Shown piece after piece: positions 11,866 through 60,672 of a DNA stretch of 64,000 nucleotides; the first letter of the stretch is position 1; each line of letters begins with the position of its first letter. The notes under the pieces are model-generated. The model was not told the origin of the DNA. It saw only the letters and a list, made by a program, of their open reading frames with translations, and ran no database searches. Where the stretch lies: contig JBFMCF010000096.1 of NCBI GenBank assembly GCA_040754625.1, positions 1,651 to 65,650 on the forward strand, written 5' to 3'. The translations under genes were made by a program, and so were the position numbers. Source of the stretch: a bacterium. GTDB taxonomy: Bacteria > JACRDZ01 > JAQUKH01.

Positions 11866-11880
11866 TTAAACCTCCAAATA

Positions 11881-19276: not shown

Positions 19277-19297
19277 ATATCTTGACTAAACATATAG

Positions 19298-22823: not shown

Positions 22824-22890
22824 TTTTGTATTCTTTTTACTCCTCTGCGGTATAATCCACTTTCATTAACATTTCTATCATCTCCAGCTC

Positions 22891-23688: not shown

Positions 23689-23690
23689 CT

Positions 23691-36648: not shown

Positions 36649-37806
36649 TCATAAAATCCTTTCAATAAATTCCCATAACCGCTTTGAGGATTCTCCATCC
36701 TTATAACGGTGATGAAGGTTTCTCATCCATGCGCGCTTCTCTCTATAGTAATCTTTTTCAGAAAGACAATATAAAATTTCCTTTTGCAGTGTATCTTGAT
36801 TAAATACCTTTGGCCCAGGAGCCCAATTTTCAAACGATTCTATAAGAAATCCTCTTGCAGCACTATACGAATCAACATCAACAGGCGCGAATATTATTGG
36901 TTTATCAAATAATAAATAGTCATAAAAAACAGAAGAATAATCTGTTATTAACATGTCAGACGCATTCAATAGCTCATATAAATCAAGGCTGTTCGCAACA
37001 AGATCCGAGTCTTTAAGTATAAGCATATTTTTTAAAGGATAATCACGAAAATAACTAATAATTAAAGCTTCTTCATGCGGGTGCGGTTTAAAAATTATTT
37101 TACATTTGTTTCCCTCTAAAAATTTATCAAAGCCCTCCGGGGAAAATTTTACAAAACCAAATGGATTATTATAGTTTTTATTCCCCTGATTTTTACCGTA
37201 ATAGTCTCTAAAAGTCGGCAGAAAAAAAACAAGTTTATCATCCTTTATTTTCTCACCGAATATTTTCTTTACATTGGACATTCCTTCTGAAACAAAAAGA
37301 AAGTCGTTCCTTGGTGCCCCCGTAATTATATACTTGTTTGAATTGGTAGGCATACATGCGTTTAAAAAAGTATTGCATGTTTCTGAATAAGACATTATAT
37401 AATCAACTTTAAGCCAGTCTTTTTGAGTTTTAAATACGCTGTCAGGTTTATTATCCAGCATAACTCCATTTTTTTTAACAAATACTCCGTGCCACAGTTG
37501 TAAATGTATATGTCTTTTGCTCGGCTTGTACGAGGCATGAGTAGTAACTATCAATTGCGCAGAGGATATTAATCTATACTTTTTAATAAAATGCGTAAAA
37601 CCTTTCCCGTCTAAAGCGGAATCCTGATATAGAATTATTTCATACTTCTTTTTCGTATCCTCACCGGCTAATTTCCATAATGCATAACTATTTGAACCCG
37701 ACCATGATTCCTGCATAAAAAGAATTCTATTCTTCTTACATTTTGTAATAACCGTAATAATATCACGGCCTATTTTTCTAATTATTTTTTTAAATAAATT
37801 ATTCAT
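36649..37806 (-). CDS. CDP-glycerol glycerophosphotransferase family protein (TagB/TagF-like)
   Basis: LQLWHGV...FLPTFRDY...KPHP motifs of the TagF family; directly downstream of tagD. Confidence 0.6.
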   Translation of the reverse strand: MNNLFKKIIRKIGRDIITVITKCKKNRILFMQESWSGSNSYALWKLAGEDTKKKYEIILYQDSALDGKGFTHFIKKYRLISSAQLIVTTHASYKPSKRHIHLQLWHGVFVKKNGVMLDNKPDSVFKTQKDWLKVDYIMSYSETCNTFLNACMPTNSNKYIITGAPRNDFLFVSEGMSNVKKIFGEKIKDDKLVFFLPTFRDYYGKNQGNKNYNNPFGFVKFSPEGFDKFLEGNKCKIIFKPHPHEEALIISYFRDYPLKNMLILKDSDLVANSLDLYELLNASDMLITDYSSVFYDYLLFDKPIIFAPVDVDSYSAARGFLIESFENWAPGPKVFNQDTLQKEILYCLSEKDYYREKRAWMRNLHHRYKDGESSKRLWEFIERIL

Positions 37807-38219
37807 CCTTTTCTCAAATTAATTAAAACCTCATTTATTAAGGTCGATGATGTTCCTTTTGTATAAGGGAAATAAACGATCTTTACTCCAACATCTTTAA
37901 ACCCAGCCTCCATTTTTTCCCATTTATTTTCTTTGTACCAATCATCTCCTACAAACATTATGTCAAACTTCAGTTTCTCCCAGGCCTCAAATTTATTCAT
38001 TGTCTCCTGTGGAATTACAGCATCTACATATCGAATACTGCGTATAATCTCCATGCGCTCTGTAAATGGGATAACTGCCTTTTTGGCCTTGTAGGATACC
38101 AACTCGTCAGTAGTAACTCCAACAATAAGTTTATCGCACATGGATTTTGCGTTTCGCAACAGGTTTAAATGCCCAATGTGGAACAGGTCGTAAACACCAG
38201 TCGTGTAACCAATAATCAT
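37803..38219 (-). CDS. tagD: Glycerol-3-phosphate cytidylyltransferase
   Basis: IIGYTTGVYDLFHIGHLNLLRNAK...VGVTTDE...R.EI...RYVD: HxGH cytidylyltransferase signature; 138 aa. Confidence 0.85.
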   Translation of the reverse strand: MIIGYTTGVYDLFHIGHLNLLRNAKSMCDKLIVGVTTDELVSYKAKKAVIPFTERMEIIRSIRYVDAVIPQETMNKFEAWEKLKFDIMFVGDDWYKENKWEKMEAGFKDVGVKIVYFPYTKGTSSTLINEVLINLRKG

Positions 38220-40989: not shown

Positions 40990-41979
40990 CTATGTAGAAT
41001 AAAACACCAGATGAGATCCAAGATTTTCGAACCGGATGGGGACAAGAAGCAAGTCTTTTAATTTTTCTTTAACATTATCCTGCCTTTCAGGAGGAACAAA
41101 TAAAAGAATAAAACCTCCGCCTCCGGCTCCGCATAATTTTCCACCTATGGCCCCGGCATTAATTGCCGTTGTGTAAATATCATTTATATTCCCATTAGAA
41201 ATAAGTTTCGTGAGATTTCTTTTTAACATCCATGACTCGTTGAGCAATTTTCCAAATTCGTGGAACCGTTCAACAGGCCCACTAAGAATATTAATGGCCT
41301 CGTCCACCATTTCTTTCATCAAATTAAGTTCATTAATCTTCTGGGGGGTCTTTTCAATTTGCTCTTTAGCTAACTCGCTTGAATATCTCGGATACCCCGT
41401 GAAATAAAATAAAAGACAATGTTGAAGATATTCCAGTTTTTCTTCATTGACGGGAATGGTCTGGACAAAAATGTCATCTTTTTTGCACCCGAACTCAATT
41501 CGATTGAAGCCGCCAAAAGCAGCTGCAATCTGGTCCTGTGACCCTACCGGCTCGCCTATTAAATTTTGTTCAACATGGATAGCATCAAAAGCAAGCCTTC
41601 TTTTTGTAACTGCCTCTCCTTTCAATGCGTATAATGCATTCAGCAAACCTACGGTAAATGATGAACTTGACCCAATGCCGGACATGGCGGGAATATCACC
41701 GGTGTGCACAATTTCAACACCTCGTTCTATCCCCATATGTTTCAGGCATTCCCGAACAGAAGGATGAATAATTTCATCAATAGTTTGTGTTTCTTCTTTA
41801 TTCGTATATCTTATACGAAACTTATGATCAAAAAACGGGGGTAAATAACGGCACGTTATATAGCAATATTTATTGATGGTTGTACTTAAAACAACACCGC
41901 CATGTTTTCTGAAAAAAACAGGGTAATCTGTACCGCCGCCGAAGAAAGATATTCGAAACGGCGTTCTTGTTATTATCAT
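40990..41979 (-). CDS. GHMP-family sugar kinase (HddA/WcbL-like heptose-7-phosphate kinase type)
   Basis: MIITRTPFRISFFGGGTDYP N-terminus and the GHMP motif PAMSGIGSSSSF. Confidence 0.7.
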   Translation of the reverse strand: MIITRTPFRISFFGGGTDYPVFFRKHGGVVLSTTINKYCYITCRYLPPFFDHKFRIRYTNKEETQTIDEIIHPSVRECLKHMGIERGVEIVHTGDIPAMSGIGSSSSFTVGLLNALYALKGEAVTKRRLAFDAIHVEQNLIGEPVGSQDQIAAAFGGFNRIEFGCKKDDIFVQTIPVNEEKLEYLQHCLLFYFTGYPRYSSELAKEQIEKTPQKINELNLMKEMVDEAINILSGPVERFHEFGKLLNESWMLKRNLTKLISNGNINDIYTTAINAGAIGGKLCGAGGGGFILLFVPPERQDNVKEKLKDLLLVPIRFENLGSHLVFYST

Positions 41980-42003
41980 AATAAGTCAACTCCTTAACAA
42001 ATA

Positions 42004-42960
42004 TTATTCCATAATTTTTGTAATTGTTTCTATTATACTTTCTTCGTCAAGATTATTTATTTTATGCAGATATTCCCTGTCACCCACTTCAAACACATAA
42101 CCATCTCCAAAACCAAACGCATTCAATTCAGATGAAAATTTATTTCTTCTCAAAATATTCGATATTAATGAATCTAAACCGCCTTTATCAATAAATCCCT
42201 CTTCCATGGTAAAAATATATTTATATTTACTCATCACTTCGGAAAGCCTCTTTTCATCAAATGTCTTTAATAGAAAAAAATCAATATGGCCGGCATTAAT
42301 ATTTTTTTCCTTTAATATATTGACAACTTTGAGCGCTTTATGAGTCATATACCCTGTTGATATAATACAAACATCTTTCCCATTCTTTAATTCGTAAAAA
42401 CCTTTTTCTATAACTATCTCTTTTTCATTATTATATATGGAAGGTTGAGCCTTGCCGTCCAGCCGTATATATTTAGGTTTATTGGTATTAAGCGAAAATT
42501 CAACAAATTTTTCCGCCATAATGTGGTCACTCGGTGAAAACACAACAATATTAGGCAGAACCCTGATTATCGGTATATCTTCAAAACAATGATGAGTAGG
42601 GCCTGTCACATCATAACTTAATCCGGCGCCGACACTAATCATATTTACATTTAAATTTCTTATCTGAGACATCAGGGATAAATTTATTCTTATTTGCTCA
42701 TAACATCTCATGGACAAAAATGGCGCAATCGCATAGGCATAAACTATATAACCCTCTAATGCCAAACCGGTTGAAACATTTATAAGATTTTGTTCCGCGA
42801 TTCCCACATTAATGAATCTCTCTTTAAAATCTTTCCTTAATTTGTCCAAAACAGGAGAACCAAAATCAGCCGACACAAAAAATATTTTATCATTGTTGAA
42901 CATTCTTTCATATATTTTTTCTATCAAAGCATCACGCATTGTTTTTGGGTTATTATTCAT
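42004..42960 (-). CDS. Transketolase, C-terminal subunit (split transketolase)
   Basis: 318 aa with pyrimidine-binding and C-terminal transketolase domains (FINVGIAEQNLI...FEVGDREY). Confidence 0.8.
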   Translation of the reverse strand: MNNNPKTMRDALIEKIYERMFNNDKIFFVSADFGSPVLDKLRKDFKERFINVGIAEQNLINVSTGLALEGYIVYAYAIAPFLSMRCYEQIRINLSLMSQIRNLNVNMISVGAGLSYDVTGPTHHCFEDIPIIRVLPNIVVFSPSDHIMAEKFVEFSLNTNKPKYIRLDGKAQPSIYNNEKEIVIEKGFYELKNGKDVCIISTGYMTHKALKVVNILKEKNINAGHIDFFLLKTFDEKRLSEVMSKYKYIFTMEEGFIDKGGLDSLISNILRRNKFSSELNAFGFGDGYVFEVGDREYLHKINNLDEESIIETITKIME

Positions 42961-43772
42961 TATTTCTCCCGAAGCAATTTATCGATTTCCTCCGCTTTTA
43001 ACGCCTTTATATGGCATAAGGAATCTGTTTCCAATCTCGGAACACTCTTGCCTTTTATTGTATTTGCGATCAACACTTTAGGTTTATTGATTTCATCTTT
43101 TTTAAAAGATAGTAAACTATCATATAATTCTTTAATATTATGTCCGTCCACAATCTTTGTTTTCCAATTAAAAATCTCGAATTTTTTGTCCAATGGTTCT
43201 AAATTCAAAATTTTCGCACAATAATCAAGCATACATATTTTGTTGTTATCAATAATTAATATCAGATTATCTAGATTATGATGGGCTGCAAACATAACGG
43301 CCTCCCAAACAGAACCTTCATATAATTCGCCATCTCCGGATAAAACAACAACTTTTTCTTTCTTACCTTTCTTTTTTAGCGCCAAAGACATACCGCATGC
43401 CACCCCTAAACCATATCCTAAACTGCCATTAGCCGTTTCATAACCGGGTATTGAACAGTCCGGAATATCCCCTAAAATTGATCCTGGTTTACCTACCATT
43501 CTCAGATATTTTGAATCAAAATATCCGAGATCTGCAAGAATCGGATAAAACGAAACTGACCCATGCGCTTTACTGATAATAAATCTATCCCTGTTTTCAG
43601 AGTGAATGTCTTTCGGATCAAATTCTAATATTTCTCCGTAATACAATACTGTAAGAATTTCCACACAAGACAAGGCCGACGCCAATCTAATTCCGGGCGC
43701 TATTTTGTGAATCTTTAAAGTTTCTTTCCAAACCCAATCCGACTTTTCTCTTAAAAAATCAAAATTTACCAT
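42960..43772 (-). CDS. Transketolase, N-terminal ThDP-binding subunit (split transketolase)
   Basis: 270 aa. ThDP motif region GSLGYGLGVACGMSLA...VVLSGDGELYEGSVWEA (GDG...E). Confidence 0.8.
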   Translation of the reverse strand: MVNFDFLREKSDWVWKETLKIHKIAPGIRLASALSCVEILTVLYYGEILEFDPKDIHSENRDRFIISKAHGSVSFYPILADLGYFDSKYLRMVGKPGSILGDIPDCSIPGYETANGSLGYGLGVACGMSLALKKKGKKEKVVVLSGDGELYEGSVWEAVMFAAHHNLDNLILIIDNNKICMLDYCAKILNLEPLDKKFEIFNWKTKIVDGHNIKELYDSLLSFKKDEINKPKVLIANTIKGKSVPRLETDSLCHIKALKAEEIDKLLREK

Positions 43773-43789
43773 ATTTTTATATTAATTTA

Positions 43790-44764
43790 TTATTTATAAT
43801 ATTTCTTATACCATTCCATAGTCTTTTTAATTCCGGTCTTAACATCAGTTTTTATTTTAAAACCTAACAGCTTCGCTGCTTTTTCTGCATTAATAAGACG
43901 TATTGGAATCATTGACGGTTTGCTGGAATCATAGGTTACAACGGCATTTTTAAACCCTTCGACCTCAAGGCACATATTGATAATCTCTTTTACGCTGTAG
44001 CCTTTTCCATAGGCGATATTTACAGGCTCATAAGTTTCAATCTTTTCTGCCGATAAAATAAGCGCCTCTATAAAATCATCAATATATATTAAATCCCTGA
44101 CATCATCACCATTCCCCCATACGTTAATCGGATTCTGTCTTTCAATAATTTTTCTTATTGTCGCGGCCATCATATGGGAAGTGGCAAAATCAAAATCATC
44201 ATACGGCCCATAAATGTTTGACGGCCGCACCACTACCGTCGGCATAGGATTTTTTAATTTTGTTGAATACATTCTGCATAAAATCTCAGTATATCTTTTC
44301 ATCCACGCGACACCAAAATAGATATCATACGGATCCCCGTTAAACATTTCTTCTTCTTTCACATATCTATCATCAGACGGTGGATAAGCGGCATTGCTGC
44401 TCAGCCATATAAACTTTTTTACTTTCGCAAAATACGCAGCCTCAAGCATTTGAGAATTCATTATTATATTCGGAGTCACATGCACAAGCGGGGTTGATGC
44501 TATTACTGCTGCGCCGGAAGTATTCGCCGCACATAAAAAAACATAATCCATACCATCAACAACTTTTTTGCAATCATCCATATTCAGTAAATTACATTTA
44601 ACATACTCAATTCTTTTATCAATAATAACAGCATCTTTTCTGTACAACGTAGCCCTGACATTAGCACCTAAGGTTAATAATCTATTAATTAAATTTGCAC
44701 CAACAAAACCAGTTCCGCCTGCAACCAGTACTTCAGCATTTCTAAACATTTTCACTCCCTTCAT
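43790..44764 (-). CDS. NAD(P)-dependent epimerase/reductase (GDP-sugar reductase-like SDR)
   Basis: VLVAGGTGFVGANLINRLL Rossmann motif; 324 aa extended SDR. Confidence 0.6.
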   Translation of the reverse strand: MKGVKMFRNAEVLVAGGTGFVGANLINRLLTLGANVRATLYRKDAVIIDKRIEYVKCNLLNMDDCKKVVDGMDYVFLCAANTSGAAVIASTPLVHVTPNIIMNSQMLEAAYFAKVKKFIWLSSNAAYPPSDDRYVKEEEMFNGDPYDIYFGVAWMKRYTEILCRMYSTKLKNPMPTVVVRPSNIYGPYDDFDFATSHMMAATIRKIIERQNPINVWGNGDDVRDLIYIDDFIEALILSAEKIETYEPVNIAYGKGYSVKEIINMCLEVEGFKNAVVTYDSSKPSMIPIRLINAEKAAKLLGFKIKTDVKTGIKKTMEWYKKYYK

Positions 44765-45257
44765 CTCGCCTTGAAACCATAGGATTTTTTACTGGCCACC
44801 ATATATTTATTTTTGGATCATTCCATAATATAGTAAACTGCCCCGCCCTGTTGTAATTTGTAGACTGTTTATAATGAAACATGGCCTGTTCACTTAAAAC
44901 AAGATGCCCATTCCCGAATTTCGGAGGGACCAAAACCTGTAATCTGTTAGTTTCCGATAGAACAAAAGATTCCCATTTACCAAACTGAGGAGAACTCTTG
45001 TCCCAATTAATAACTACAAGATAAAATTTTCCATATAGACAAGAAACTAATTTATATGTATCATTATCTCCATGAATACCTCTAAGAACATGTTTTGAGG
45101 ATACTGAAATATCATCTTGCATAAAATTGACATTAATACCTGCTTTCCGATAAAGACCATCGTTATAAATTTCTATATAACTTCCCCTGAAATCTTCAAA
45201 AATAGTAGGCGGCTTTATAAGTAAAACCCCTTCAAGTTTTGTTTTGCTGACTTCCAT
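44742..45257 (-). CDS. dTDP-4-dehydrorhamnose 3,5-epimerase-like cupin (RmlC superfamily NDP-sugar epimerase)
   Basis: LEGVLLIKPPTIFEDFRGSYIE...RGIHGD......KLV.C..G: RmlC fold motifs; 171 aa. Confidence 0.7.
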   Translation of the reverse strand: MEVSKTKLEGVLLIKPPTIFEDFRGSYIEIYNDGLYRKAGINVNFMQDDISVSSKHVLRGIHGDNDTYKLVSCLYGKFYLVVINWDKSSPQFGKWESFVLSETNRLQVLVPPKFGNGHLVLSEQAMFHYKQSTNYNRAGQFTILWNDPKINIWWPVKNPMVSRRDEGSENV

Positions 45258-45259
45258 AA

Positions 45260-46246
45260 TTACTCCTTAAAATAATTTTTTTTATTCAAATATTCATTCT
45301 GATTTTTTAAAAACCAGTTCCATGTTTCTTTTAATCCATCCAGTAAAGAGGTTGTTGGGTTATAATCAATTAGCTCTGCTGCCAGAGAAATATCCATAAC
45401 CCGTTTGGGGAATCCCGAAGATTTTGTTGTATCAAACTTATAATTAAAGTCAATAAAGCTATTTAATGTTTCTACCAGTTCTTTAATAGTAACGCCTTTG
45501 CCACTGCCTAAATTAACAAAACCGGATTTTGTCCCGTGATAGAGCGCGAGAATAACACCTTCAGCCACATCTCTGCTATACGCAAAATCTCTTACCGCGG
45601 TTCCATCACCCCAAATTGTTACCGGATTTTCTTTATTATAAATTCTATACATCAAACTCGGTATTACCATTGCATTATCCGGATCAAAATTATCGCCCGG
45701 GCCGTATACGTTACAAGGCCTGACAATGGCAAAATTTTCCAGGCCGTATTGAATTTTATAAGCCTGGACCTGAAGTTCGGCCATTCTTTTCGCCCATCCT
45801 GGAAACATATCCATCGGCGGGCCTTCAAGATTTTCGTTTTCTTTAAATATTTCCGCGCTGGAGTAAGCGCCTATAGAACTTGTATAAACAACCTTTTGAA
45901 CTTTATTGATTCTGCTTGCCTCCAAAACATTAGTATTAAACATCAAAAGAGGAACAAAAAAACTTGCGGGTTTTGATTTTGTAACTTCGACAGAACCTTT
46001 TATTCCAGCCATATGGAAAACAAAATCCATATCTTTTGTCACTTCTTTGCAGAATTCAAAATTCGTAAGGTCTCCGAAAATATGTTCTGCTTTATCATTT
46101 ACATTAACCTTATCCAAGGAAACTATCTTTACGTACACCCCAGTATCGCACAAAAGATTAACAACCTGTCTTCCAATAAGGCCTGTTCCCCCTGTTATCA
46201 AAACACTTTTCCTTATAAAACTTTTCAATATATTGTCCCTTATCAT
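45260..46246 (-). CDS. NAD-dependent epimerase/dehydratase family protein
   Basis: VLITGGTGLIGRQVV Rossmann motif; YTSS...Y...K catalytic-like residues; 328 aa. Confidence 0.6.
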   Translation of the reverse strand: MIRDNILKSFIRKSVLITGGTGLIGRQVVNLLCDTGVYVKIVSLDKVNVNDKAEHIFGDLTNFEFCKEVTKDMDFVFHMAGIKGSVEVTKSKPASFFVPLLMFNTNVLEASRINKVQKVVYTSSIGAYSSAEIFKENENLEGPPMDMFPGWAKRMAELQVQAYKIQYGLENFAIVRPCNVYGPGDNFDPDNAMVIPSLMYRIYNKENPVTIWGDGTAVRDFAYSRDVAEGVILALYHGTKSGFVNLGSGKGVTIKELVETLNSFIDFNYKFDTTKSSGFPKRVMDISLAAELIDYNPTTSLLDGLKETWNWFLKNQNEYLNKKNYFKE

Positions 46247-46310
46247 TTAAATCTCCCATTAAAACATTTACTTTCTGCATGATCAACTGGAATTATGGAA
46301 CCAACAAAAC

Positions 46311-46886
46311 TTATATTTTTATGATTTTTCTGTTTATCAGATATTTAGCAATAATCGCAATCTGAAAGCCGATATAAATTTCACCTTCTGCAATCTTTTC
46401 AAGAATATCATTAAATGTAAAGCATTCAACGCTTACAATTTCATTGTCATGAACTCCCCTTGAGTCAAACTCCTGCCGTGTAAGGTGGATTTGGAAAATA
46501 TATGGAAGAACAGGACTACGCAACATGTGTATAAGCGGGGGCAGCATCTGGAATCTATTAAGATCAGAGATAAGAATTCCAGTTTCTTCAGCCAGTTCTC
46601 TGCCCGCTGTTTCAACAGGCAATTCGTTATCTTTCAAACCTCCCGCAGGGACCTCAAGAGTTCTATCGGCAACAACAGGCCTGTCAACCCTCACCATAAC
46701 TATCGAATTATTGTCCACGATTGGCAAAATAAGTACCTGCGGCATGTTGTATTCTACAGTAAAGTAACCTTTTCTATTGCGCACCGCAAACCATGGATTT
46801 TCATGTACTGTTTCCACCGGTATCAGTGAAAAACACTGAGCTTCCACCAGTCTTGGATCATTTAATAAATATTTTCTTCCGTCCAT
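46311..46886 (-). CDS. Nudix hydrolase (NDP-sugar / ADP-ribose pyrophosphatase type)
   Basis: Nudix box GGLKDNELPVETAGRELAEETGI. Confidence 0.7.
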   Translation of the reverse strand: MDGRKYLLNDPRLVEAQCFSLIPVETVHENPWFAVRNRKGYFTVEYNMPQVLILPIVDNNSIVMVRVDRPVVADRTLEVPAGGLKDNELPVETAGRELAEETGILISDLNRFQMLPPLIHMLRSPVLPYIFQIHLTRQEFDSRGVHDNEIVSVECFTFNDILEKIAEGEIYIGFQIAIIAKYLINRKIIKI

Positions 46887-46892
46887 CTTTTT

Positions 46893-47906
46893 CTATCTTG
46901 TCAGAAAAACTCTGCCTAATTTAAGCCTTTCCCTCCAATAATCAAGCAAATCCTGCATAGTTTTTTCGAAAGGTATTCTTGGTTTCCAGCCTGTGTGCCT
47001 TTCAAACTTGCTTGTATCCGGCACCTGAAGATCGGCATCTAAAGGACGAAACCTTGAAGCCTCAGTCTCAACTCTAATTATATTTTTATGAGTCGAAATC
47101 GAAATTAAATACTTAAGCATTTCTCCAACTGTACATGAAAAAGTCCCGCCAATATTATAGTACTCACCGGGTAACGGATTAACAGTGACCAGCATATAAT
47201 ATGCCCGAACAGCATCTCTGACATCCGACCATGTACGTAAAGAATCTAAATTACCGGTCTTTACTACGGGTGCAATCAACCCTTTCTCAATCATCGCAAT
47301 TTGTTTTGCAAAAGTGGATTCGGCAAATATATCTCCTCTGCGTGGCCCGGTGTGCGTAAACATCCTGGTTACAACAATTCTCTGGCCATAAGCTTCTGCA
47401 TGAAATCTGGCTATAAGATCAGTTCCTGTTTTGGATATCGCATAGGGAGATGCCGGATGAAATGAACATTCTTCATTAATCGGCAATTTATCTTTTTTTA
47501 CGCGTCCAAAAACTTCAGAAGATGAGCATACATGGATAACGGGGTCGATTCCTTTGCATTTTCTTAATGCTTCCAGCAATCTTTCAGCGCCTAGAATGTT
47601 TGTATCAAGTGTTTGTATGGGAGATGTAAAACTTGTACTCGGGTAACTCTGGGCGGCTAAATGAAAAACAAAATCCGGCCTGCTTTCTTCAACAACATTT
47701 TGCAGTGATATATAATCACATAAATCGCCATACATAAAACATAAACGGTCTTTTTTATTAGCTCTATTGAGAAGGTGTTCCACATTATCCATAGAACTGC
47801 GCCATCGGCACATCCCATAAATATCCCAATCTGTATTTTCAAGTAAAAAATCCGCCAAATGGGAACCAACCATACCGGTAATACCTGTAATCAACGCTTT
47901 TTTCAT
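46893..47906 (-). CDS. NDP-sugar 4,6-dehydratase/reductase of the Gmd/Rmd extended-SDR family (DmhA-like)
   Basis: [21 protein letters not shown]...FHLAAQS; 337 aa. Confidence 0.55.
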   Translation of the reverse strand: MKKALITGITGMVGSHLADFLLENTDWDIYGMCRWRSSMDNVEHLLNRANKKDRLCFMYGDLCDYISLQNVVEESRPDFVFHLAAQSYPSTSFTSPIQTLDTNILGAERLLEALRKCKGIDPVIHVCSSSEVFGRVKKDKLPINEECSFHPASPYAISKTGTDLIARFHAEAYGQRIVVTRMFTHTGPRRGDIFAESTFAKQIAMIEKGLIAPVVKTGNLDSLRTWSDVRDAVRAYYMLVTVNPLPGEYYNIGGTFSCTVGEMLKYLISISTHKNIIRVETEASRFRPLDADLQVPDTSKFERHTGWKPRIPFEKTMQDLLDYWRERLKLGRVFLTR

Positions 47907-48658
47907 TGTTCATTACTCCCAAATTTTTCAGCCTTAGTAAACCTTTTTACCTTTTTAAAAAAATTTTCTGCTTCCTTATACGAATCCGGTGTGCCTATAT
48001 CGATGAATTCTGCATCCTGCGGAAATGCAAACAATCCGTTACCAATCATTTTTGGGAAGAAATCTTTTTCAAATGAAATATTTTTCTTTTCCTGCATTGA
48101 TGCTATTAATTCACGGTTTATACAATATATTCCGCTATTGATCCACCCACTTCCTTTATTTGCTTTTTTCTCATCAAATGAAGTAATCATGTAACTTGAA
48201 TCAAAATTAACACAGCCGTACCTGCTCACATCCGGCACCTGAACTAACAAAAGCGTACATGATGCTTTTATTGCAGTATGCCATTCTAATAAAGTTTGCG
48301 GATTAATGTTGCAGTACGAATCCCCGTTAAAAATCATAATAGCGTCAGATTTTACCATACCCGCCGCGTTTCTCACTGCGCCTGCCGTACCTAAAGGCTC
48401 ATTTTCTTCTGAATAACGCAGGTAAAGTGTCTTGTATCTATCACCTAAAAGGTTTTTGACTTGCCCACTCATAAATCCCGTACATAAAATCACATCTTCA
48501 CCGCCGGCATTTGAAATCTGATCCAGAATAAATGTGATAAACGGGTTTCCCATGATATCGGCAAGAGCCTTTTGACGGTCAGATACTATTGGCCGCAGCC
48601 TTTTACCGAAGCCTCCACAGAGAATTAATGTGCTAATTTCAGAAAAAATATTTTTCAA
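47903..48658 (-). CDS. Sugar-1-phosphate nucleotidyltransferase (HddC/WcbM-like)
   Basis: ILCGGFGKRLRPIVSDRQKAL matches the G.G.R signature of NTP-transferases; 251 aa. Confidence 0.65.
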   Translation of the reverse strand: MKNIFSEISTLILCGGFGKRLRPIVSDRQKALADIMGNPFITFILDQISNAGGEDVILCTGFMSGQVKNLLGDRYKTLYLRYSEENEPLGTAGAVRNAAGMVKSDAIMIFNGDSYCNINPQTLLEWHTAIKASCTLLLVQVPDVSRYGCVNFDSSYMITSFDEKKANKGSGWINSGIYCINRELIASMQEKKNISFEKDFFPKMIGNGLFAFPQDAEFIDIGTPDSYKEAENFFKKVKRFTKAEKFGSNEQ

Positions 48659-48691: not shown

Positions 48692-49873
48692 TTAAACATC
48701 AAGCCATGCAGTATCCGAACAATCACGTATTTCTTTCGCATACGCATCCCACTCTGCCCTCCGTATCACATATTGTTCCAATTCTTCAGCCCCCAGCCCC
48801 CAATCATTGCCATTATAAACTATCTGGCGTTTCCCGTCTTTCATTTCATCTATTGCTTCCCAATATTCTTTATAACATCCTGAGCTGATTTCAGGTTTTT
48901 TATCCTTATTCTTTTCTTTTAATGTTTTTGGAGTAAGCTTACTCTTTAACTCCCCAAGCTTTAAAGCCCCGATGAAAAACATTAAACAGCTGGCAAGCTT
49001 ATCCGAAAAACAATAGAAAAGTATTTTATCGCACAATCCGGGAATCGTACTTCTCCACCGGGAATCGTGGTCAATATGATAAATACAGCATTCATCAGGA
49101 AGCATTTCTTCTTTAATCCCCTTTAAATAAGCCATATTGCAAAGCAAAATTTCCACCCCCAGACCCAAATTATCCCTTTCAGGAAAACCCCTCAAAGAAT
49201 GCCATGATTCCCTCGACATTAATAATAAATCTGCTCCATTAAGATGCAAATTGGGGAAATCCCGATTACCGGCATTGATATCAAGATTCCTACTTCTTAA
49301 GTGTTGTTTTTTTTTCCTCACTACTGGAATGCTAATGTTGCGAGTGTGAATCCAGATAACATTTTTCCTGCAGAATTCCAATAAATCAGCCGACGATACT
49401 TCCAATATATTTCTGTTTACATCCTGCCTGTCCGTCCTGTATATCTTATCAGCCTCAAGAATTTCTTTGGCAACAAACTCTATTAATTCATCGGAAAATA
49501 AAATATCAATGGATGTCATCAGAACAAACTTTCCCCGTGCCCTTTTAAGTCCCGCGTTTTGTGCCACACTGAAATTGTAAGGTGTTTTATCCGAATCCTT
49601 GAAGCGTGTGTGAATTGACGATGGAACAACCAAATACCTGATTGTGCAATATTTTGTCTCTTCAGGCCAGCATAATACATCTTTTAAAAGAGGTTTATGA
49701 GAAGGAGGATTATAATCCGTTAATATTACTTCCGATTTAAGTTTATATTTTTCAAGCTGGCCTATGACGGAACTAAGTGTTGTCTGTGTCCGTTTAAACA
49801 TATTGCCACCGTGATCATCATTTCTTGAGCTGGTAACAATGCTTAAATATGGAGACTCGTGAACATCATTCAT
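48692..49873 (-). CDS. GT2-like (GT-A fold) glycosyltransferase
   Basis: LSIVTSSRNDDHGGN...NFSVAQNAGLKRARGKFVLMTSIDILFSDE follows the GT2 pattern (IPTYN..., NxG..A.G......D.D). Confidence 0.4.
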   Translation of the reverse strand: MNDVHESPYLSIVTSSRNDDHGGNMFKRTQTTLSSVIGQLEKYKLKSEVILTDYNPPSHKPLLKDVLCWPEETKYCTIRYLVVPSSIHTRFKDSDKTPYNFSVAQNAGLKRARGKFVLMTSIDILFSDELIEFVAKEILEADKIYRTDRQDVNRNILEVSSADLLEFCRKNVIWIHTRNISIPVVRKKKQHLRSRNLDINAGNRDFPNLHLNGADLLLMSRESWHSLRGFPERDNLGLGVEILLCNMAYLKGIKEEMLPDECCIYHIDHDSRWRSTIPGLCDKILFYCFSDKLASCLMFFIGALKLGELKSKLTPKTLKEKNKDKKPEISSGCYKEYWEAIDEMKDGKRQIVYNGNDWGLGAEELEQYVIRRAEWDAYAKEIRDCSDTAWLDV

Positions 49874-50075: not shown

Positions 50076-50648
50076 TTATCCTTTTATCGCTTCAACGTTA
50101 AGGGCAACAAATTTACCTTTAAACCATTCACTGTCAGGCAAAATTTTATTTTTTTTATCTCTGTAGGGCATGTAATTTAAACTCCAGTCACGCACTTGCG
50201 CGTGTTCTGTCTTATTACGGTCATACCGCCGCACATTTACAAACCCAACAGACAATAAATCTTTCTTAAGTGTTTTAAAATCCCAGCACCAATAATGATA
50301 ATTACCGGGATTATCCTGCCCTCCATATAATGCGCAGTACATTGTTTCCAAATCCTTTGTTTTCATATAGTATTCACATAGAGACTCAAAATCAGGCACA
50401 CTAAGCCTCAATATTCCGCCCTTTTTTAATAAATCATACCATCTTTTCAACGCCGGCATATATTCCCACCTGCCCAAATGTTCAAGCACATTACTGCCAT
50501 AAATTAAATCAACTGAGTTTTCTTCAAATTTTCTTAAATGCCTGACATTATCCACAGCATCAACATTGGGCAAATAATTTGAATCAATATTGATAAAACC
50601 ATCGATGCGAACATTGCCACAACCCAAATGCAATTTCAATTTATCCAT
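50076..50648 (-). CDS. Class I SAM-dependent methyltransferase
   Basis: LHLGCGNVRIDGFINID...VDLIYGSNVLEHL...KKGGILRLSVPD. Confidence 0.55.
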   Translation of the reverse strand: MDKLKLHLGCGNVRIDGFINIDSNYLPNVDAVDNVRHLRKFEENSVDLIYGSNVLEHLGRWEYMPALKRWYDLLKKGGILRLSVPDFESLCEYYMKTKDLETMYCALYGGQDNPGNYHYWCWDFKTLKKDLLSVGFVNVRRYDRNKTEHAQVRDWSLNYMPYRDKKNKILPDSEWFKGKFVALNVEAIKG

Positions 50649-50705
50649 TGTTTTCCCCTGGCTTTCTCTGTTCTAAGCAGGCAACATAGCCTAAAACAGG
50701 TTTTT

Positions 50706-51710
50706 TTATATGAAATTTACTTGATATTTCTTACTGTGTGTGCCGTCAAGAATGATATTTCCTATAATGGTATTAAGCCATTCTTTAGAGCAAAATTTGC
50801 ATTTTTTTGGATTTATGGAAGCTACTAAATCTTTATGTTTTTGAGAACCCCACAAATCATATAATTCCCGCCAATTGTTTCTAGTATAATCGTCCGTAAG
50901 AATATAGCCGGTTCTTACATCGCAACATAAATAAAATTTGTGATTCGCCCCGAAAGTTGCATAAAGTGGAGTCCCCCGGCACACTTCAAATTCATATTGA
51001 ATTGCAGAGTTCTTAGGCAAGGCATCTTTCAAAATATATTTGCATCCCAATGTCTTTGCCAATTGAGGAAGCATTTCGGCATCAGCGTAATTATCTTTTT
51101 GTCTGCATTGAGTTGTCTTTTTCTTGTCTCTGATTCCCATAGTTGGCGAAAGCTCTTTTCTCCCCAGATGAATTTCCTCACACCATCTGATGAATTTGAG
51201 GGAAATTTCCAGGTCCGGAACACTATCACGGATACGTTTGACGTTATTGATAATTCGATGGAAGTTTTTCTCCGAAGATCCTTTCAATTGGCTCCAGGTC
51301 CTTGCAGTGGCTGCATCTAAACTTATACCCAACCAGCTAAGTAAATGCAGATTTTTAACTTTATCAAGCAAAACCCCATTAGTAATCAATCCCATATGGA
51401 TACCGTTTTCATATCCGCTCTGAAAAAGATAATGTATGTCCGGATTCAACGTTGGCTCGCTATCTCCTGCTATCCTCCAGGATTTTATGCCCCATTTTTT
51501 ACAGAACGGTCCCATTTTTTTTATAGTTTCTATAGACATAAATGTTGATTCTTTCGTTTCCTGGCTTGCTCGCTGAGCGCACCATTCGCAATTCAAGTTA
51601 CATGCACCATTTACAGGATCCACATCCGCCATTATGGGTGGCAAAAATTCTCCGTCCAAAATACCTTTAACTCTATCATAGTATCGTAACAATTTTATTT
51701 TCGAATCCAT
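50706..51710 (-). CDS. Radical SAM enzyme with C-terminal Cys-rich (SPASM/twitch-like) region
   Basis: GACNLNCEWC (CxxxCxxC) near the N-terminus. Additional Cys clusters are present (YLCCD, KKCKFC). 334 aa. Confidence 0.65.
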   Translation of the reverse strand: MDSKIKLLRYYDRVKGILDGEFLPPIMADVDPVNGACNLNCEWCAQRASQETKESTFMSIETIKKMGPFCKKWGIKSWRIAGDSEPTLNPDIHYLFQSGYENGIHMGLITNGVLLDKVKNLHLLSWLGISLDAATARTWSQLKGSSEKNFHRIINNVKRIRDSVPDLEISLKFIRWCEEIHLGRKELSPTMGIRDKKKTTQCRQKDNYADAEMLPQLAKTLGCKYILKDALPKNSAIQYEFEVCRGTPLYATFGANHKFYLCCDVRTGYILTDDYTRNNWRELYDLWGSQKHKDLVASINPKKCKFCSKEWLNTIIGNIILDGTHSKKYQVNFI

Positions 51711-51751
51711 TTTCTAACTTTCCTCATAACTCACGGCCACATTTTTGGTGT

Positions 51752-52504
51752 TCAACGCGCGCCAGATACAGGAATAATCGAACCTGATACATAAGAAGCC
51801 TCATCGGATAACAACCAGGCTATTGTCCTCGCAACTTCTACCGGCTTACCCATACGGCCCGTCGGCAATGAATGTTTTAGCATTTCTCGCCTTTCTTTAG
51901 CAATACCTTTATGTACATCCGTGTCAATTACACCCGGGCTCACAGCGTTTACTCTGATGTTAAAAGGAGCTAATTCTTTCGCGAATCCTTTCGTGACAAT
52001 ATTTATCGCTGCCTTTGAAGCGGCGTAATGTGTAAGTTTGTTTCCACCGAATATAGCTGCTTCAGAAGAAACATTTACAATACCGCCTCTGCCAATTTTT
52101 TTCATGCGTTTTACTGCCTCTCTAATACAGATAAAAACACCAAATACGTTTAATGAAAAAACTGACGTAAGTGTATCCAAGGTTATTTCTTCACAAACTG
52201 AAAAACCTCCGATATCTCCTGCATTATTTACAAGTGCTGTAACAACCCCATAATTCCTATCTATATACTTAAATAGATTAAGAATATCTTTTTCCTTCCT
52301 AATGTCAGCTTGTATTTGAACTGCTCTGCCACCAGTTTTCAAAATTTCATCTACAACATTCTGGGCTAATTCTATATCTTTGAAATAGTTCACGCATACA
52401 AAATATCCCTTTTCCCCTAACAATTGTGCAGTCGCAGCACCAATACCTTTACTCGCACCTGTCACAAGAGCTATTTCATTGTTCATAGCATGGCCTTTAA
52501 GCAA
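51752..52504 (-). CDS. Short-chain dehydrogenase/reductase (FabG-like classical SDR)
   Basis: ALVTGASKGIGAATA...NNAG...S....Y..SKAA: classical SDR motifs. Confidence 0.75.
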   Translation of the reverse strand: MLKGHAMNNEIALVTGASKGIGAATAQLLGEKGYFVCVNYFKDIELAQNVVDEILKTGGRAVQIQADIRKEKDILNLFKYIDRNYGVVTALVNNAGDIGGFSVCEEITLDTLTSVFSLNVFGVFICIREAVKRMKKIGRGGIVNVSSEAAIFGGNKLTHYAASKAAINIVTKGFAKELAPFNIRVNAVSPGVIDTDVHKGIAKERREMLKHSLPTGRMGKPVEVARTIAWLLSDEASYVSGSIIPVSGAR

Positions 52505-52521
52505 TTCTAATGATAGAAAGC

Positions 52522-53631
52522 TTATTTATCAATAATTTTAGAAACAATTTTATACCACTTTTGATATTCAACAAAAAATTGCTTTATCATTTCTTTTTCA
52601 ACAGCACCACGTATTTTCATTTTTCCCAAATCTTGTTGGCAATTTTTAATTAATTCGCCAAGTGCTTCAAAATAAGTATTTTTTGTCAACTCAGCGTTCC
52701 GAAGCAATAAAACAAAGTCATCAGCCGCACGATTATTTATTAATTCTATGTCCAAATCATCCCATAAATCATGCATATTTCTTATTTGCCTTACTAAGGG
52801 TTGGCCAAAAGTTATAACATGACCAAAATGTCCGGCAAGTTTGTTAATTAAATATGCTGTCCATATATCTCCGTTCCTCAAAGTTGATAGTGGCCTATAA
52901 TATAAAGGTATTAATTCACGACATAAGGATGTGTTTTGATAATTAAACGGAGACCATGTTCCCGGGTAAAGACCAAACTGTTGATCAAAATCAGATTTCA
53001 TACCAGTGGCACGTATAGGCCAAAATAATCGTGAAATAGCATCTATATCGGGATCTTCGAGCACTAATCCCTGATTTGCAACCACTTTGACTTTTTTTGA
53101 ACTGTATGTTTTTTTACTTGCCTCAGGATTTCTTTGTTTCCATGGAAAACCTCTAGGATAAAAAGGAATATTATGTTCCTCTTCCAACGCACTATGGACA
53201 TTAAACCATCCCGAACTATTCTTAATCAACTTCAGATTGGCTTCTGTGCCGGTCACAGAATGAAATCCCACGAAATCATGTTCAGTTGTATAATTATCGT
53301 CATCAACTGCAATCAGCCTGTCACATCCTCTCATATAACTAAGCATACCGCCTAACATAATTCGATCGGGTGTATTGTATGGAAAAAGTTCCAGCAGGTC
53401 TTTATGTTTGAATAAAGCTTTTTTCTGACCTTCAATGCTTAAATATTCAATATCAAATTTGAATTTATCAGCTATTTTTTTGCAATATTCTTCAGTTTCA
53501 GCTGGTGTTTTAACATCGCCAATAACAAGAATTGAGACATCTAATCTATTATAATTTATTAAATTTTGACAAATTCCTTTTATAAATTCTGGAACATTTA
53601 TAGTAGTAATAGTTATCGCTGTCTTGCCCAT
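52522..53631 (-). CDS. GT75 / reversibly-glycosylated-polypeptide-like protein (UDP-L-arabinopyranose mutase family homolog)
   Basis: Blocks are collinear with the plant RGP proteins as I recall them: ITITTINVPEF vs LDIVIPTIRNLDF; LIAVDDDNY vs IFTIDDDCF; NQGLVLEDPDIDAISRL vs SHGLWLNIPDYDAPTQL; NGDIWTAYLINKLAGHFG vs YDDMWAGWCVKVICDHLG. A strong RBS (AAGGAG) precedes the start. Confidence 0.5.
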   Translation of the reverse strand: MGKTAITITTINVPEFIKGICQNLINYNRLDVSILVIGDVKTPAETEEYCKKIADKFKFDIEYLSIEGQKKALFKHKDLLELFPYNTPDRIMLGGMLSYMRGCDRLIAVDDDNYTTEHDFVGFHSVTGTEANLKLIKNSSGWFNVHSALEEEHNIPFYPRGFPWKQRNPEASKKTYSSKKVKVVANQGLVLEDPDIDAISRLFWPIRATGMKSDFDQQFGLYPGTWSPFNYQNTSLCRELIPLYYRPLSTLRNGDIWTAYLINKLAGHFGHVITFGQPLVRQIRNMHDLWDDLDIELINNRAADDFVLLLRNAELTKNTYFEALGELIKNCQQDLGKMKIRGAVEKEMIKQFFVEYQKWYKIVSKIIDK

Positions 53632-53919
53632 CTAAAAAATCTCCTTTTCAGTTTATTAATTATAAATTTATTTTACAATAACCAACTATGCAAATATTTT
53701 AATATTCTCCCCTCCTCCCATAATACATCTTCATAATTAACTTTCAACTGATTCGTTATAGCCAGTGCAATATAACAATTCTTTCATTCCTTGTCAACAG
53801 GAATTTTAAATGAAAGTATCCTCATTTTTAAAATAATGATTAGAATGGATAATATAATTTTTTTAATAAATCAGGAACCTTGTGAATATTTTATCGTTGA
53901 ATAATGATTAGCTTTTAAG

Positions 53920-55437: not shown

Positions 55438-55582
55438 ATAGTAATAATAAATGAGACGGCATTGTTATATTATTTTATTATTGATACTTACGAAATCCCC
55501 TGGTGCTTTTGTTTTTTTATAGTGCTTCGCCCTCTCAGTTACATTTCTGTAAACAGTAACCAACGATGGGCAATTTAAATTC

Positions 55583-56152
55583 TTAAATTTTTTCAACATC
55601 TGATGCATCTATTTTTAAAGACGCACCATGCATAAGCACGTCCACTGAAATTATTAGTATATGCTGTCCGGACCTTTTTGAAAGAACACCTTCGACTCCT
55701 GAAAGAGGGCCTTTTTTTATCCTCACTCTCTGTCCTTCTTTCAAATAAGGATACGGATCGAGGGGTTCCCGGCTTTCAACAATTCTTCTTAGAAAAATAA
55801 TTTGTTCCTCCGGTACAGGCTCCGGTTCACCATGTTTTATCCCAAGAAATTTCACTACACCCGTTGTCTTCAAAACATTTAACACATTTTGGGGATTTTT
55901 AAGCATATTAACAAAAAGATATCCCGGGAAGAGCGGAAACTTTACCAGTTTTTTTCTATCCTTCCATCTGTTTAGTTTCTCCACAACAGGGAGAAATGTG
56001 TTTATCCCGGTTTCTGTTAACCTCTCCAATACCTTAAACTCATGCCGGGACCTCACATGAATAACATACCAAAAAGCTTTATTAGAAAATTCGAATGGAG
56101 ATTTTCCACTAACAGAATAAAACTTTGAAACCACTCTATCCGATGGATTCAT
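55583..56152 (-). CDS. NusG-family transcription antiterminator paralog (RfaH/UpxY/LoaP-like); start trimmed to the internal Met
   Basis: NGN domain (WYVIHVRSRHEFKV...FPGYLFV) plus a C-terminal KOW (EGQRVRIKKGPLSGVEGVL). The ORF-track N-terminal 39 aa overlap kpsF and look non-coding. Confidence 0.6.
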   Translation of the reverse strand: MNPSDRVVSKFYSVSGKSPFEFSNKAFWYVIHVRSRHEFKVLERLTETGINTFLPVVEKLNRWKDRKKLVKFPLFPGYLFVNMLKNPQNVLNVLKTTGVVKFLGIKHGEPEPVPEEQIIFLRRIVESREPLDPYPYLKEGQRVRIKKGPLSGVEGVLSKRSGQHILIISVDVLMHGASLKIDASDVEKI

Positions 56153-56243
56153 AAAATTGGATAACTTTATTAGTTTTAAAAAATTTTCCGAAGATATATT
56201 AATTTCTTCGATTATAAATGTTAAGAGGTCAAGAATTTTTAAA

Positions 56244-57209: not shown

Positions 57210-57213
57210 AATT

Positions 57214-58433: not shown

Positions 58434-58534
58434 AAAAATCCTTTTTATAATTTATAATAATCAATTATCTCAATTAAATAATTATCTATGTCAGTCAATC
58501 TATTTTTTAAAATATCTTTTTTAAAAGAATATTT

Positions 58535-58975: not shown

Positions 58976-58978
58976 ATT

Positions 58979-60589: not shown

Positions 60590-60672
60590 ATTTTCTCCAG
60601 TAAAATGAAATTGATATTATCATATAAAATAAAATTGTGTCAACTGATAAAACTATTTTTTATTATTTATTA

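Follow-up and report, generated by a model that had tools for sequence, protein, structure and literature searches.

Why would the genes of a two-subunit transketolase (TK) lie inside a cassette for the synthesis of an activated heptose? The question is posed by a block of nine co-oriented genes (positions 40990-48658, minus strand) in the 64,000-nt stretch of DNA analyzed here (the window, to whose full length all coordinates refer), a polysaccharide super-locus of about 37% GC that is encoded on a single strand, the minus strand. An original prediction had read the block as a GDP-(6-deoxy)heptose-type cassette and had proposed that the embedded TK provides sedoheptulose-7-phosphate (S7P) locally. 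All nine open reading frames (ORFs) lie where that prediction had placed them, all exceed Pfam gathering scores, and neighboring genes touch or overlap. Unrelated phyla share this set of genes, often with its order preserved (SDR2-TktN-TktC-kinase-NTP transferase), so that the grouping is not due to chance. The heptose cassette appears to be a new representative of an established pathway type; the interesting part is the embedded split TK, which carries Arg and Ile at positions 26 and 100 (R26/I100; E. coli numbering). The residues and neighbors of this R26/I100 clade point to carbon-carbon bond tailoring of a sugar nucleotide, not to central metabolism. The reading tentatively put forward here is that of a GDP-6-deoxyheptose cassette with a TK-like C2 carboligase, which would act on GDP-4-keto-6-deoxyheptose.

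The probable GDP-6-deoxyheptose core

Related loci were collected through the kinase of the cassette. A scan of one genome per species yielded 80 loci with 53-86% kinase identity and none above 86%. Neighbors within 10 kb on either side were identified by tblastn with the window proteins, additional proteins from sister loci and GmhA and GmhB as probes; loci from other genomes are designated by L-numbers (L001, L012, L090 and so on). The 80 loci come from Desulfobacterota, Omnitrophota, Planctomycetota, phyla of the candidate phyla radiation (CPR), Dehalococcoidia, Methanoperedens, Betaproteobacteria and Nitrospira, and conservation of the kinase is unusually high: proteins at 70-90% identity to it are labelled Desulfobacterales, Phycisphaerae, Nanoarchaeota, Solirubrobacterales and 'Acetobacterium' metagenome-assembled genomes (MAGs). 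A nucleotidyltransferase accompanies the kinase in 65 loci; the short-chain dehydrogenases/reductases (SDRs) named SDR2 and SDR1 have counterparts in 55 and 51, and a DmhA-like dehydratase is present in 23.

The dehydratase (46893-47906; Pfam GDP_Man_Dehyd/Epimerase) matches the solved GDP-D-glycero-D-manno-heptose 4,6-dehydratase of Campylobacter jejuni (PDB entry 7us5) with 381 bits (E 6e-113) and 54% identity over 335 columns, whereas true GDP-mannose dehydratases reach at most 150 bits. It is only 30% identical to the canonical Gmd of the window itself (11881-13071), which belongs to a separate canonical ManC-Gmd pair. Within the earlier description as Gmd/DmhA-like, it is of the DmhA/DdahA type. 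The catalytic motif P-Y-x-x-x-K is present in canonical form, as P-Y-A-I-S-K.

Both activating enzymes rank with heptose enzymes. The nucleotidyltransferase (47903-48658, with a TTG start codon; Pfam NTP_transferase 125 bits) has its best PDB matches in 5xhw/6jq8, deposited as 'putative 6-deoxy-D-mannoheptose pathway protein' (Yersinia HddC, 133 bits), ahead of GDP-mannose pyrophosphorylases (99 bits), RmlA (60 bits or less) and glucose-1-phosphate cytidylyltransferase (44 bits). Among NCBIfam models it reaches 149 bits for HddC (NF049965, cutoff 300) and 166 bits for the Rv-type ManC (cutoff 440). It is therefore HddC-like, as had been predicted, and not of the dTDP- or CDP-glucose type, and probably acts as a heptose-1-phosphate guanylyltransferase. 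The GHMP kinase (40990-41979; PF00288 52 bits and PF08544 41 bits, GHMP_kinases_N/C, both above gathering scores) was ranked against family models and solved structures. The NCBIfam ranking is headed by HddA (NF049969) with 140 bits against a cutoff of 600, followed by fucokinase (93 bits) and galactokinase (60 bits), and the PDB ranking by 3k85, 4usk/4usm (WcbL) and 4n3o at E values of about 1e-38 to 1e-32, with fucokinase (1e-15) and galactokinase (1e-12) at lower ranks. [quoted passage not shown]

The RmlC-like epimerase and the Nudix hydrolase of the earlier description are both present. The cupin (44742-45257; Pfam dTDP_sugar_isom 159 bits) has as its top PDB matches the C. jejuni GDP-heptose 3- and 3,5-epimerases 7an4, 7ang, 8db5, 8dco and 7m14 (E about 1e-35), which suggests an RmlC-fold GDP-4-keto-heptose 3- or 3,5-epimerase; orthologues with 59-80% identity occur in 35 of the 80 loci. 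The Nudix protein (46311-46886; Pfam NUDIX) shows weak PDB matches to ADP-ribose and ADP-sugar pyrophosphatases and is presumed to be an NDP-sugar pyrophosphatase. Its orthologues (45-63% identity) are found in 17 loci, usually straight after the dehydratase.

The two further SDRs had been predicted to be reductases or epimerases. Extended SDRs are indeed encoded at both positions, and both lack the canonical catalytic Tyr. SDR1 (45260-46246; Pfam Epimerase) is best matched in the PDB by E. coli GDP-fucose synthase (GFS; E 3e-31) and has orthologues of 58-85% identity across phyla. Its active-site motif is a non-canonical F-P-G-W-A-K-R without Tyr at K-4, and F[PA]GWAKR is kept in 32 orthologues. 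The best PDB matches of SDR2 (43790-44764) are 8ewu, 7m13, 7cxt and 7anc (E 1e-29 to 1e-24), deposited as GDP-L-fucose synthase, which we take to be the heptose C4 reductases of C. jejuni; by this ranking SDR2 is related to such reductases. It carries the motif Y-F-G-V-A-W-M-K-R, with Tyr at K-7 and not at K-4 (31 orthologues). In the same alignment P-Y-x-x-x-K is present in four other SDRs of the window as well as in E. coli GFS and GalE. A Tyr at K-7 is the spacing of the 'divergent' SDRs of the FabI type.

The best solved relatives of the kinase, guanylyltransferase, dehydratase, epimerase and GFS-like SDR thus come from the GDP-6-deoxy-heptose pathways of C. jejuni, Yersinia pseudotuberculosis and Burkholderia pseudomallei, and the cassette core is very probably such a pathway, as judged from homology. 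The C. jejuni set comprises GmhA, HddA, GmhB, HddC, DdahA/DmhA, the DdahB/MlghB epimerases and the DdahC/MlghC/Cj1428 reductases. In contrast, the window cassette has no GmhA or GmhB, contains a Nudix hydrolase and an embedded split TK-like enzyme, has SDRs with non-canonical motifs, and its kinase and nucleotidyltransferase score far below equivalog cutoffs. To our knowledge, no thiamine diphosphate (ThDP) enzyme is encoded in the characterized 6-deoxyheptose clusters of Campylobacter, Yersinia or Burkholderia.

As the original prediction had noted, GmhA and GmhB are not obvious, and neither was found within the 64 kb. Both were sought with E. coli sequences, used as tblastn probes only, which located GmhA beside the kinase in 13 of the 80 loci and GmhB in 15 (kinase orthologues of 55-65% identity). 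These kinases come from Dehalococcoidia, Methanoperedens, Chloroflexota and Massilia/Herbaspirillum, and thus chiefly from lineages that are not expected to make lipopolysaccharide (LPS) heptose (Dehalococcoidia, Methanoperedens and Chloroflexota). Within 10 kb, no GHMP kinase other than that of this clade is encoded in 12 of the 13 loci with GmhA, which is good contextual evidence that the clade does the job of HddA. The pattern suggests that cassettes without GmhA and GmhB rely on copies elsewhere in the genome.

A KdsD-like isomerase (56244-57209) and a KdsC-like phosphatase (57214-57738) do exist upstream, and had been considered as substitutes for GmhA and GmhB. However, the KdsD-like protein passes the model for KpsF/GutQ arabinose-5-phosphate isomerases (289 bits, cutoff 203.7), the KdsC-like protein (103.4) narrowly misses the cutoff of the YrbI model (106.95), and the genes occur in none (KdsD-like) and one (KdsC-like, L065) of the 80 kinase loci. 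On these family scores and the missing co-occurrence, the idea of the pair as a stand-in was rejected as unsupported. The one exception, L065 (a Wolfebacteria MAG, 10001-15269), encodes after the kinase and nucleotidyltransferase a xylose-isomerase-like TIM barrel, a class-III aminotransferase, a KdsC-like HAD phosphatase that is 49% identical to that of the window, and an aldo-keto reductase. This set could be a route to the kinase substrate that does not involve GmhA and GmhB.

The active site of the transketolase-like enzyme

The TK is encoded by two genes, TktN (42960-43772; ThDP/Mg-binding subunit; Pfam Transketolase_N 108 bits) and TktC (42004-42960; pyrimidine-binding and C-terminal subunit; Pfam Transket_pyr and Transketolase_C), and the start codon of TktC overlaps the stop codon of TktN. 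Both subunits are related to the split TK of Carboxydothermus hydrogenoformans (TktN to PDB 6yak, E 7e-46; TktC to 6yaj, E 1e-35). The NCBIfam TK model NF004559 gives 193 bits for TktN and 125 bits for TktC, in combination less than the cutoff of 488, and for TktC there is no preference between TK (124.5 bits) and DXS (122.7 bits) models, with both scores far under cutoff. TktN is matched at 100% identity by an NCBI protein with the name 'thiamine pyrophosphate-dependent enzyme'; a 67%-identical homologue (P0224) is named 'Apulose-4-phosphate transketolase subunit A', and most others 'transketolase'.

For a comparison of individual residues, all 25 cassette-linked TKs were aligned with three references, namely TktA of E. 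coli, the human TKT and the split TK of C. hydrogenoformans. The length of the TktA sequence (663 residues) and all 13 of its literature-numbered residues proved correct; segments of the human sequence were confirmed by HMMER output, from which the C. hydrogenoformans sequence was taken. The window enzyme shares with canonical and split TKs and DXS the fold, the ThDP/Mg motif GDG...N (equivalents of D155 and N185), the activating Glu (E411), H66, H261 and H473, and with the C. hydrogenoformans enzyme the division into subunits. R358 is kept as well, so the ThDP machinery is intact. It differs by H26R and H100I in TktN and by S385P, H461G, D469T and R520G in TktC. Five enzymes form a subclade (window, L014, L025, L065 and L081) with H26R, H100I, S385P, H461G, D469T/V/S and R520G/S/A. 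All 25 cassette TKs contain Gly in place of H461 and a residue other than Ser at S385, and R520 is kept in five. R26 and I100 are invariant in the 120 nearest homologues (66-100% identity). Among the 150 best representatives of 50%-identity clusters, drawn from 1.84 billion proteins, the R-H-I-H combination is confined to about 12 top clusters, after which H-H-H-H dominates (103 of 150). By this sequence criterion the R/I signature marks a discrete clade next to split TKs of the HHHH type.

The positions concerned contact the substrate in TKs. H100 (yeast H103) holds the C1 hydroxyl of the donor and H26 (yeast H30) acts on its C3 hydroxyl, S385, H461, R520 and R358 bind the substrate phosphate, and D469 reads the C2 hydroxyl of the acceptor. 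Only R358 of the phosphate-binding set is retained in the window. Several natural substitutions fall at positions that have been changed by engineers: an alkyl donor, pyruvate for example, binds better to TKgst once its His102 is exchanged for a non-polar residue, and the variant S385D/H462I/R521H works on non-phosphorylated aldoses (PMC11997939). The window enzyme is thus unlikely to be a normal pentose-phosphate TK, and the automatic TK names are probably wrong in view of the active-site substitutions. Such annotations ('transketolase', 'apulose-4-phosphate transketolase') would mislead reconstructions of the pentose-phosphate pathway in MAGs.

Of the predicted embedded two-subunit TK, the split TK-fold pair and the ThDP motif therefore stand, and the canonical substrate residues are replaced. 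Its proposed role as the local source of S7P is unsupported, because two catalytic His, the Asp that determines stereochemistry and all phosphate-binding residues except R358 are missing. A working pentose-phosphate-type TK that raises the local S7P level, with ordinary GDP-6-deoxyheptose as the product, is accordingly considered improbable. In its favor are the intact ThDP machinery and the position of a TK beside GmhA, GmhB and kinase genes in Dehalococcoidia and one Methyloversatilis locus (L034, L052 and L081), lineages that may be without a full pentose-phosphate pathway; some cassette TKs outside the window type also keep H26, H100, D469 and R520 (L034). However, the window clade has lost H26, H100, S385, H461, D469 and R520, and the combined TK score lies below the model cutoff. 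Throughout the 80 loci a TK is not associated with GmhA (6 of 13 loci with GmhA, 19 of 67 without; p = 0.33), and the conserved neighbors are sugar-nucleotide enzymes. Sister cassettes can have E1 alpha/beta enzymes, which are unable to make S7P, at the position of a type-1 TK (H26 and H100 kept), and some clusters encode two or three ThDP enzymes. A weakly TylF-like methyltransferase (about 244-253 amino acids) is regularly encoded after type-1 TKs.

Genomic context and the proposed reaction

A split TK is present in 25 of the 80 kinase loci, an E1 alpha/beta pair in 30, and one or the other in 50. With window-type TktN homologues as the starting point, the same cassette was found again in Thermodesulfovibrionales (L090/L091), the metagenome contigs L093 and L094, and Ignavibacteriales (L095). 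An extended SDR flanks the window-type TK in all 11 loci. In 10 of them it lies directly upstream of TktN (91 bp or less), where it is SDR2-like in seven cases, a 4,6-dehydratase in two (L025 and L092) and SDR1-like in one; in the eleventh an SDR2-like gene follows TktC. The order SDR-TK-DegT aminotransferase is found in L065 and L092. A ThDP enzyme (TK or E1) is encoded in all 11 loci that contain a DmhA-like gene of at least 70% identity, compared with 39 of the 69 others (Fisher p = 0.005), and in 20 of the 22 loci with SDR1 and RmlC, compared with 30 of 58 (p = 0.0015).

ThDP enzymes that act on sugar nucleotides are not without parallel. According to a 2025 review, three classes branch keto sugars, namely YerE-like enzymes, alphaKADH2 and split-gene TKs (PMC12247030). 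YerE-like enzymes, of the decarboxylase type, transfer pyruvate-derived activated acetaldehyde to CDP-3,6-dideoxy-4-keto-glucose in O-antigen pathways, and alphaKADH2 (E1 alpha/beta), from about 120 secondary-metabolite clusters, add a C2 branch at C3 or C4 that is later reduced, methylated or transaminated (PMC12247030). Split-gene TKs were only proposed, for miharamycin and amipurimycin, on 13 predicted sequences that "all originate from Streptomycetes", none of them characterized (PMC12247030). All three classes occur in the cassette family described here. In L092 (Margulisiibacteriota, 9000-20900, with no kinase within 10 kb) the order is dehydratase-like SDR, window-type TK, DegT aminotransferase, ALS/YerE-type ThDP enzyme, second split TK, aldo-keto reductase and Nudix; a YerE-type gene thus co-occurs with window-type TKs. 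L090 (1959-13504) harbors two split TKs of different subtypes, and E1 alpha/beta pairs in many sister cassettes occupy the slot after the Nudix gene that is held by the type-1 TK in L090.

The window enzyme resembles each class in part. Like the Streptomyces split TKs, it is a two-subunit TK beside a keto-sugar-making oxidoreductase with a proposed ketone acceptor (PMC12247030). The Streptomyces enzymes, compared by description only, are proposed to transfer a hydroxyacetyl group from a hydroxy-keto-acid or ketose donor to nucleoside-linked sugars in antibiotic clusters, whereas the window enzyme belongs to a polysaccharide locus, a GDP-heptose scaffold and uncultured lineages, and I100/R26 suggests a non-hydroxylated 2-oxo-acid donor. 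The proposed role has in common with YerE and YerF (yersiniose A) a ThDP-dependent acetaldehyde transfer to a 4-keto-deoxy sugar nucleotide followed by ketoreduction, in LPS or polysaccharide loci. However, YerE is a single polypeptide of the decarboxylase/ALS-type superfamily that acts on a CDP-3,6-dideoxyhexose, and the window enzyme has the TK fold, two subunits and a GDP-heptose context. The alphaKADH2 enzymes (aldgamycin, kibdelomycin KbDH-alpha/beta, paulomycin, trioxacarcin, avilamycin) likewise consist of two subunits and introduce a pyruvate-derived C2 branch at C3 or C4, but belong to another ThDP superfamily and so far come only from secondary-metabolite clusters; no E1 pair is encoded in the window. 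As regards the acceptor, the window TK is encoded next to enzymes that generate an NDP-4-keto sugar, with a DmhA-type dehydratase in the cassette. That the TK acts on a sugar nucleotide is, on balance, the favored assumption.

The following pathway is proposed. [quoted passage not shown] The DmhA-type dehydratase should then yield GDP-6-deoxy-4-keto-D-lyxo-heptose, and the RmlC-fold enzyme should epimerize C3 and/or C5; both steps are well supported by homology. The split TK-like enzyme would act as a ThDP-dependent C2 carboligase on the keto-sugar nucleotide. Its ThDP-bound C2 carbanion would most likely be hydroxyethyl-ThDP derived from a 2-oxo acid, pyruvate or another, given that Ile replaces the His which holds the C1 hydroxyl of the donor and Arg the His facing donor C3; Ile100 would fit a methyl group and Arg26 would bind a carboxylate. 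The GDP-keto-heptose would receive the C2 unit at its C4 (or C3) carbonyl, after which SDR2 may reduce the new acyl branch, as YerF does, or the ring carbonyl. The product would be a C-branched 6-deoxyheptose (or a chain-extended one, if addition takes place at an aldehyde) that is passed to a glycosyltransferase, and the Nudix enzyme probably hydrolyzes surplus or off-pathway GDP-sugar. The reverse arrangement, with the GDP-keto-sugar as TK donor in a C-C cleavage, was rejected on chemical grounds, since the carbonyl group is an internal one and the ring oxygen is attached to C5.

Several points weigh against this proposal. TKs are not known to act on keto-sugar nucleotides, and the Streptomyces precedent is itself a proposal. 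The argument from residue roles draws in part on general background and on reference sequences that were checked by residue numbering (E. coli) and by segments (human). R358 is kept and a Lys follows the R520 position, so that some phosphate binding may remain. H473 is also kept, whereas engineered pyruvate-using TKs needed H474S in addition (PMC11997939). The absence of the canonical catalytic Tyr makes the reductase roles of SDR1 and SDR2 uncertain, and no GmhA- or GmhB-type gene is found anywhere in the 64-kb window. The kinase (140 of 600 bits) and nucleotidyltransferase (149 of 300) lie far under their NCBIfam equivalog cutoffs and therefore represent separate clades, not members of the curated families. 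The co-occurrence statistics are indicative only, because the loci are non-independent and were cut at 10 kb on either side.

An alternative order of events has a model in the lincosamide GDP-octose pathway, in which the transaldolase LmbR feeds LmbN/P/K/O (GmhA/HddA/GmhB/HddC-like). There too a C-C bond-forming enzyme is found among activators of the HddA/HddC type, and this arrangement is the logic behind both the idea of S7P supply and that of a TK-like enzyme which builds an unusual skeleton from non-phosphorylated precursors, before kinase and nucleotidyltransferase activate the product. The lincosamide transaldolase uses phosphorylated sugars, and that pathway includes an isomerase and a phosphatase, which are absent in the window. 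Skeleton-building before activation, perhaps with release of the sugar from a GDP-sugar by the Nudix enzyme, is regarded as unlikely. The loss of phosphate-binding residues fits free-sugar substrates, TktC and kinase are direct neighbors in the window, L014, L090 and L095, and GmhA and GmhB were not found in most cassettes. The kinase is distant from characterized HddA/WcbL (115-134 bits), whereas the dehydratase shares 54% identity with the C. jejuni enzyme, and in L065 a xylose-isomerase-like TIM barrel and a KdsC-like HAD adjoin the kinase and nucleotidyltransferase. However, TK products are 2-ketoses, for which an anomeric aldose kinase would need an isomerase, and none is encoded in the window. 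The kinase clade as sole kinase of nearly all GmhA loci points to heptose-7-phosphate as its substrate, and DmhA-type dehydratases need a GDP-heptopyranose.

It is highly unlikely that the TK-like enzyme serves as the source of an activated acetyl or glycolyl (C2) unit for O-acylation, N-acylation or some other decoration without C-C bond formation, or that it is a passenger. TK-like enzymes deliver glycolaldehyde units to carrier proteins in natural-product pathways, and the wider locus is rich in decorating enzymes. However, the cassette encodes no lipoyl/E2, acyl carrier protein or acyltransferase partner, and the passenger idea was rejected on the synteny with sugar-nucleotide SDRs across phyla.

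C2 transfer to the keto-sugar nucleotide thus remains the preferred reading. A broader claim, made with more reserve, is that R26/I100 split TKs might be a previously unrecognized, widespread class of 2-oxo-acid-dependent carboligases acting on GDP-4-keto-(6-deoxy)heptose; the lineages concerned are Desulfobacterota, Nitrospirota/Thermodesulfovibrionales, Ignavibacteriales, Margulisiibacteriota and CPR. Similarly speculative is the corollary that nine-carbon branched or extended heptose-derived sugars may occur in the surface glycans of many uncultured lineages. If true, this would be the first assignable sugar-nucleotide tailoring role for a TK-fold enzyme, together with a family of nine-carbon heptose-derived surface sugars on many uncultured bacteria. 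A full-text literature search returned no paper that links a TK to a GDP-heptose cluster or describes this arrangement. Since the substitutions match those of TKs engineered for pyruvate and non-phosphorylated acceptors, the proteins could be ready-made biocatalysts for making tertiary alcohols or deoxy-ketoses.

Surroundings of the cassette

Upstream of the cassette, genes follow in the order 393-amino-acid protein, methyltransferase, radical SAM protein, FabG-like SDR, 369-amino-acid protein, Wzx-like flippase and UpxY-family antiterminator (NCBIfam 127.9 bits, cutoff 100). The UpxY-like gene appears to head the locus; beyond it, and upstream of it, lie the KdsD-like and KdsC-like pair and a Wzz-like gene. 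Downstream are AsnB-type amidotransferases, a TagD/TagF-like pair and GT4 glycosyltransferases. The best reading of this setting is a horizontally spread GDP-heptose tailoring cassette inside a Wzx/Wzy-type polysaccharide locus.

The 393-amino-acid protein (48692-49873, minus strand) is a weak candidate for a dedicated GT-A-like glycosyltransferase. It has no Pfam or NCBIfam match at normal thresholds, and shows sub-threshold similarity to Glyco_transf_49 (E 0.005) and Glycos_transf_2 (E 0.02). Homologues adjoin the cassette in L023 (39% identity), L025 (32%) and L001 (25%). It is not homologous to the 407-amino-acid protein that follows the nucleotidyltransferase in L090, so a single dedicated glycosyltransferase cannot be claimed.

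The next four genes (50076-53631, minus strand; assigned with Pfam and NCBIfam) encode the methyltransferase, a viperin/MoaA-like radical SAM protein of 334 amino acids, the FabG-like SDR and the 369-amino-acid protein. The best NCBIfam matches of the radical SAM protein are viperin-like and MoaA models, all far under cutoff. The block shares 77-87% identity and synteny with L012, where it is directly followed by SDR1-RmlC-SDR2-kinase-NTP transferase. Its enzymes may take part in this sugar pathway, for instance through radical deoxygenation or methylation, and the functional unit may extend upstream to 53631. The 369-amino-acid gene is preceded by an AT-rich gap of 288 bp (53632-53919). The best sigma70-like match of the region lies in this gap (53797-53769; TTGACA-17-TATATT, 11 of 12 matches, TG upstream), as does a Shine-Dalgarno sequence, AAAGGAG, ahead of the ATG. 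This gap could be an internal promoter. The promoter and terminator scan as a whole gave counts no better than those of shuffled sequences (75 against 67.7 +/- 9.5 and 16 against 14 +/- 3.4), and no operon boundaries were taken from it for this reason.

Further radical SAM proteins are found in and around the cassettes. A B12-binding one (26748-28211) is encoded among the glycosyltransferases of the window and has relatives (20-27% identity) in 41 of the 80 kinase loci; sister cassettes themselves contain closer B12-radical SAM genes, placed ahead of the kinase or between SDR1 and RmlC, which hints at sugar C-methylation in these relatives. In Phycisphaerae-type contigs (L004 and L006-L009, from about 11050/11195 onward) the kinase is directly followed by a gene for a protein of 4014 residues with several GT2, TPR and radical SAM/SPASM domains.

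The window as a whole gives the impression of a fusion of two or more polysaccharide loci. Its remaining parts (1-40000 and 53900-60600) contain two Wzx-like flippases (6625-7896 and 53920-55437), two Wzy_C proteins (8086-9399 and 14582-15853), two Wzz-like proteins (9403-10182 and 57738-58433) and a Wza-like exporter (58979-60589). Sugar-nucleotide and transfer functions are represented by the canonical ManC-Gmd pair with a GFS-like SDR (10260-14585), a WbpM-like dehydratase with a Bac_transf initiating transferase (15884-18363), a UDP-GlcNAc 2-epimerase/FnlB-like pair and a HisH/HisF-like pair (20548-24305), the TagD/TagF-like genes (36649-38219) and two AsnB-type amidotransferases. Compared with E. 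coli GFS, the GFS-like SDR (10260-11324) has about 35 inserted residues, its Pfam Epimerase match falls into two stretches, and a gene with an ORF6N domain (11311-11865) is wedged between it and Gmd.

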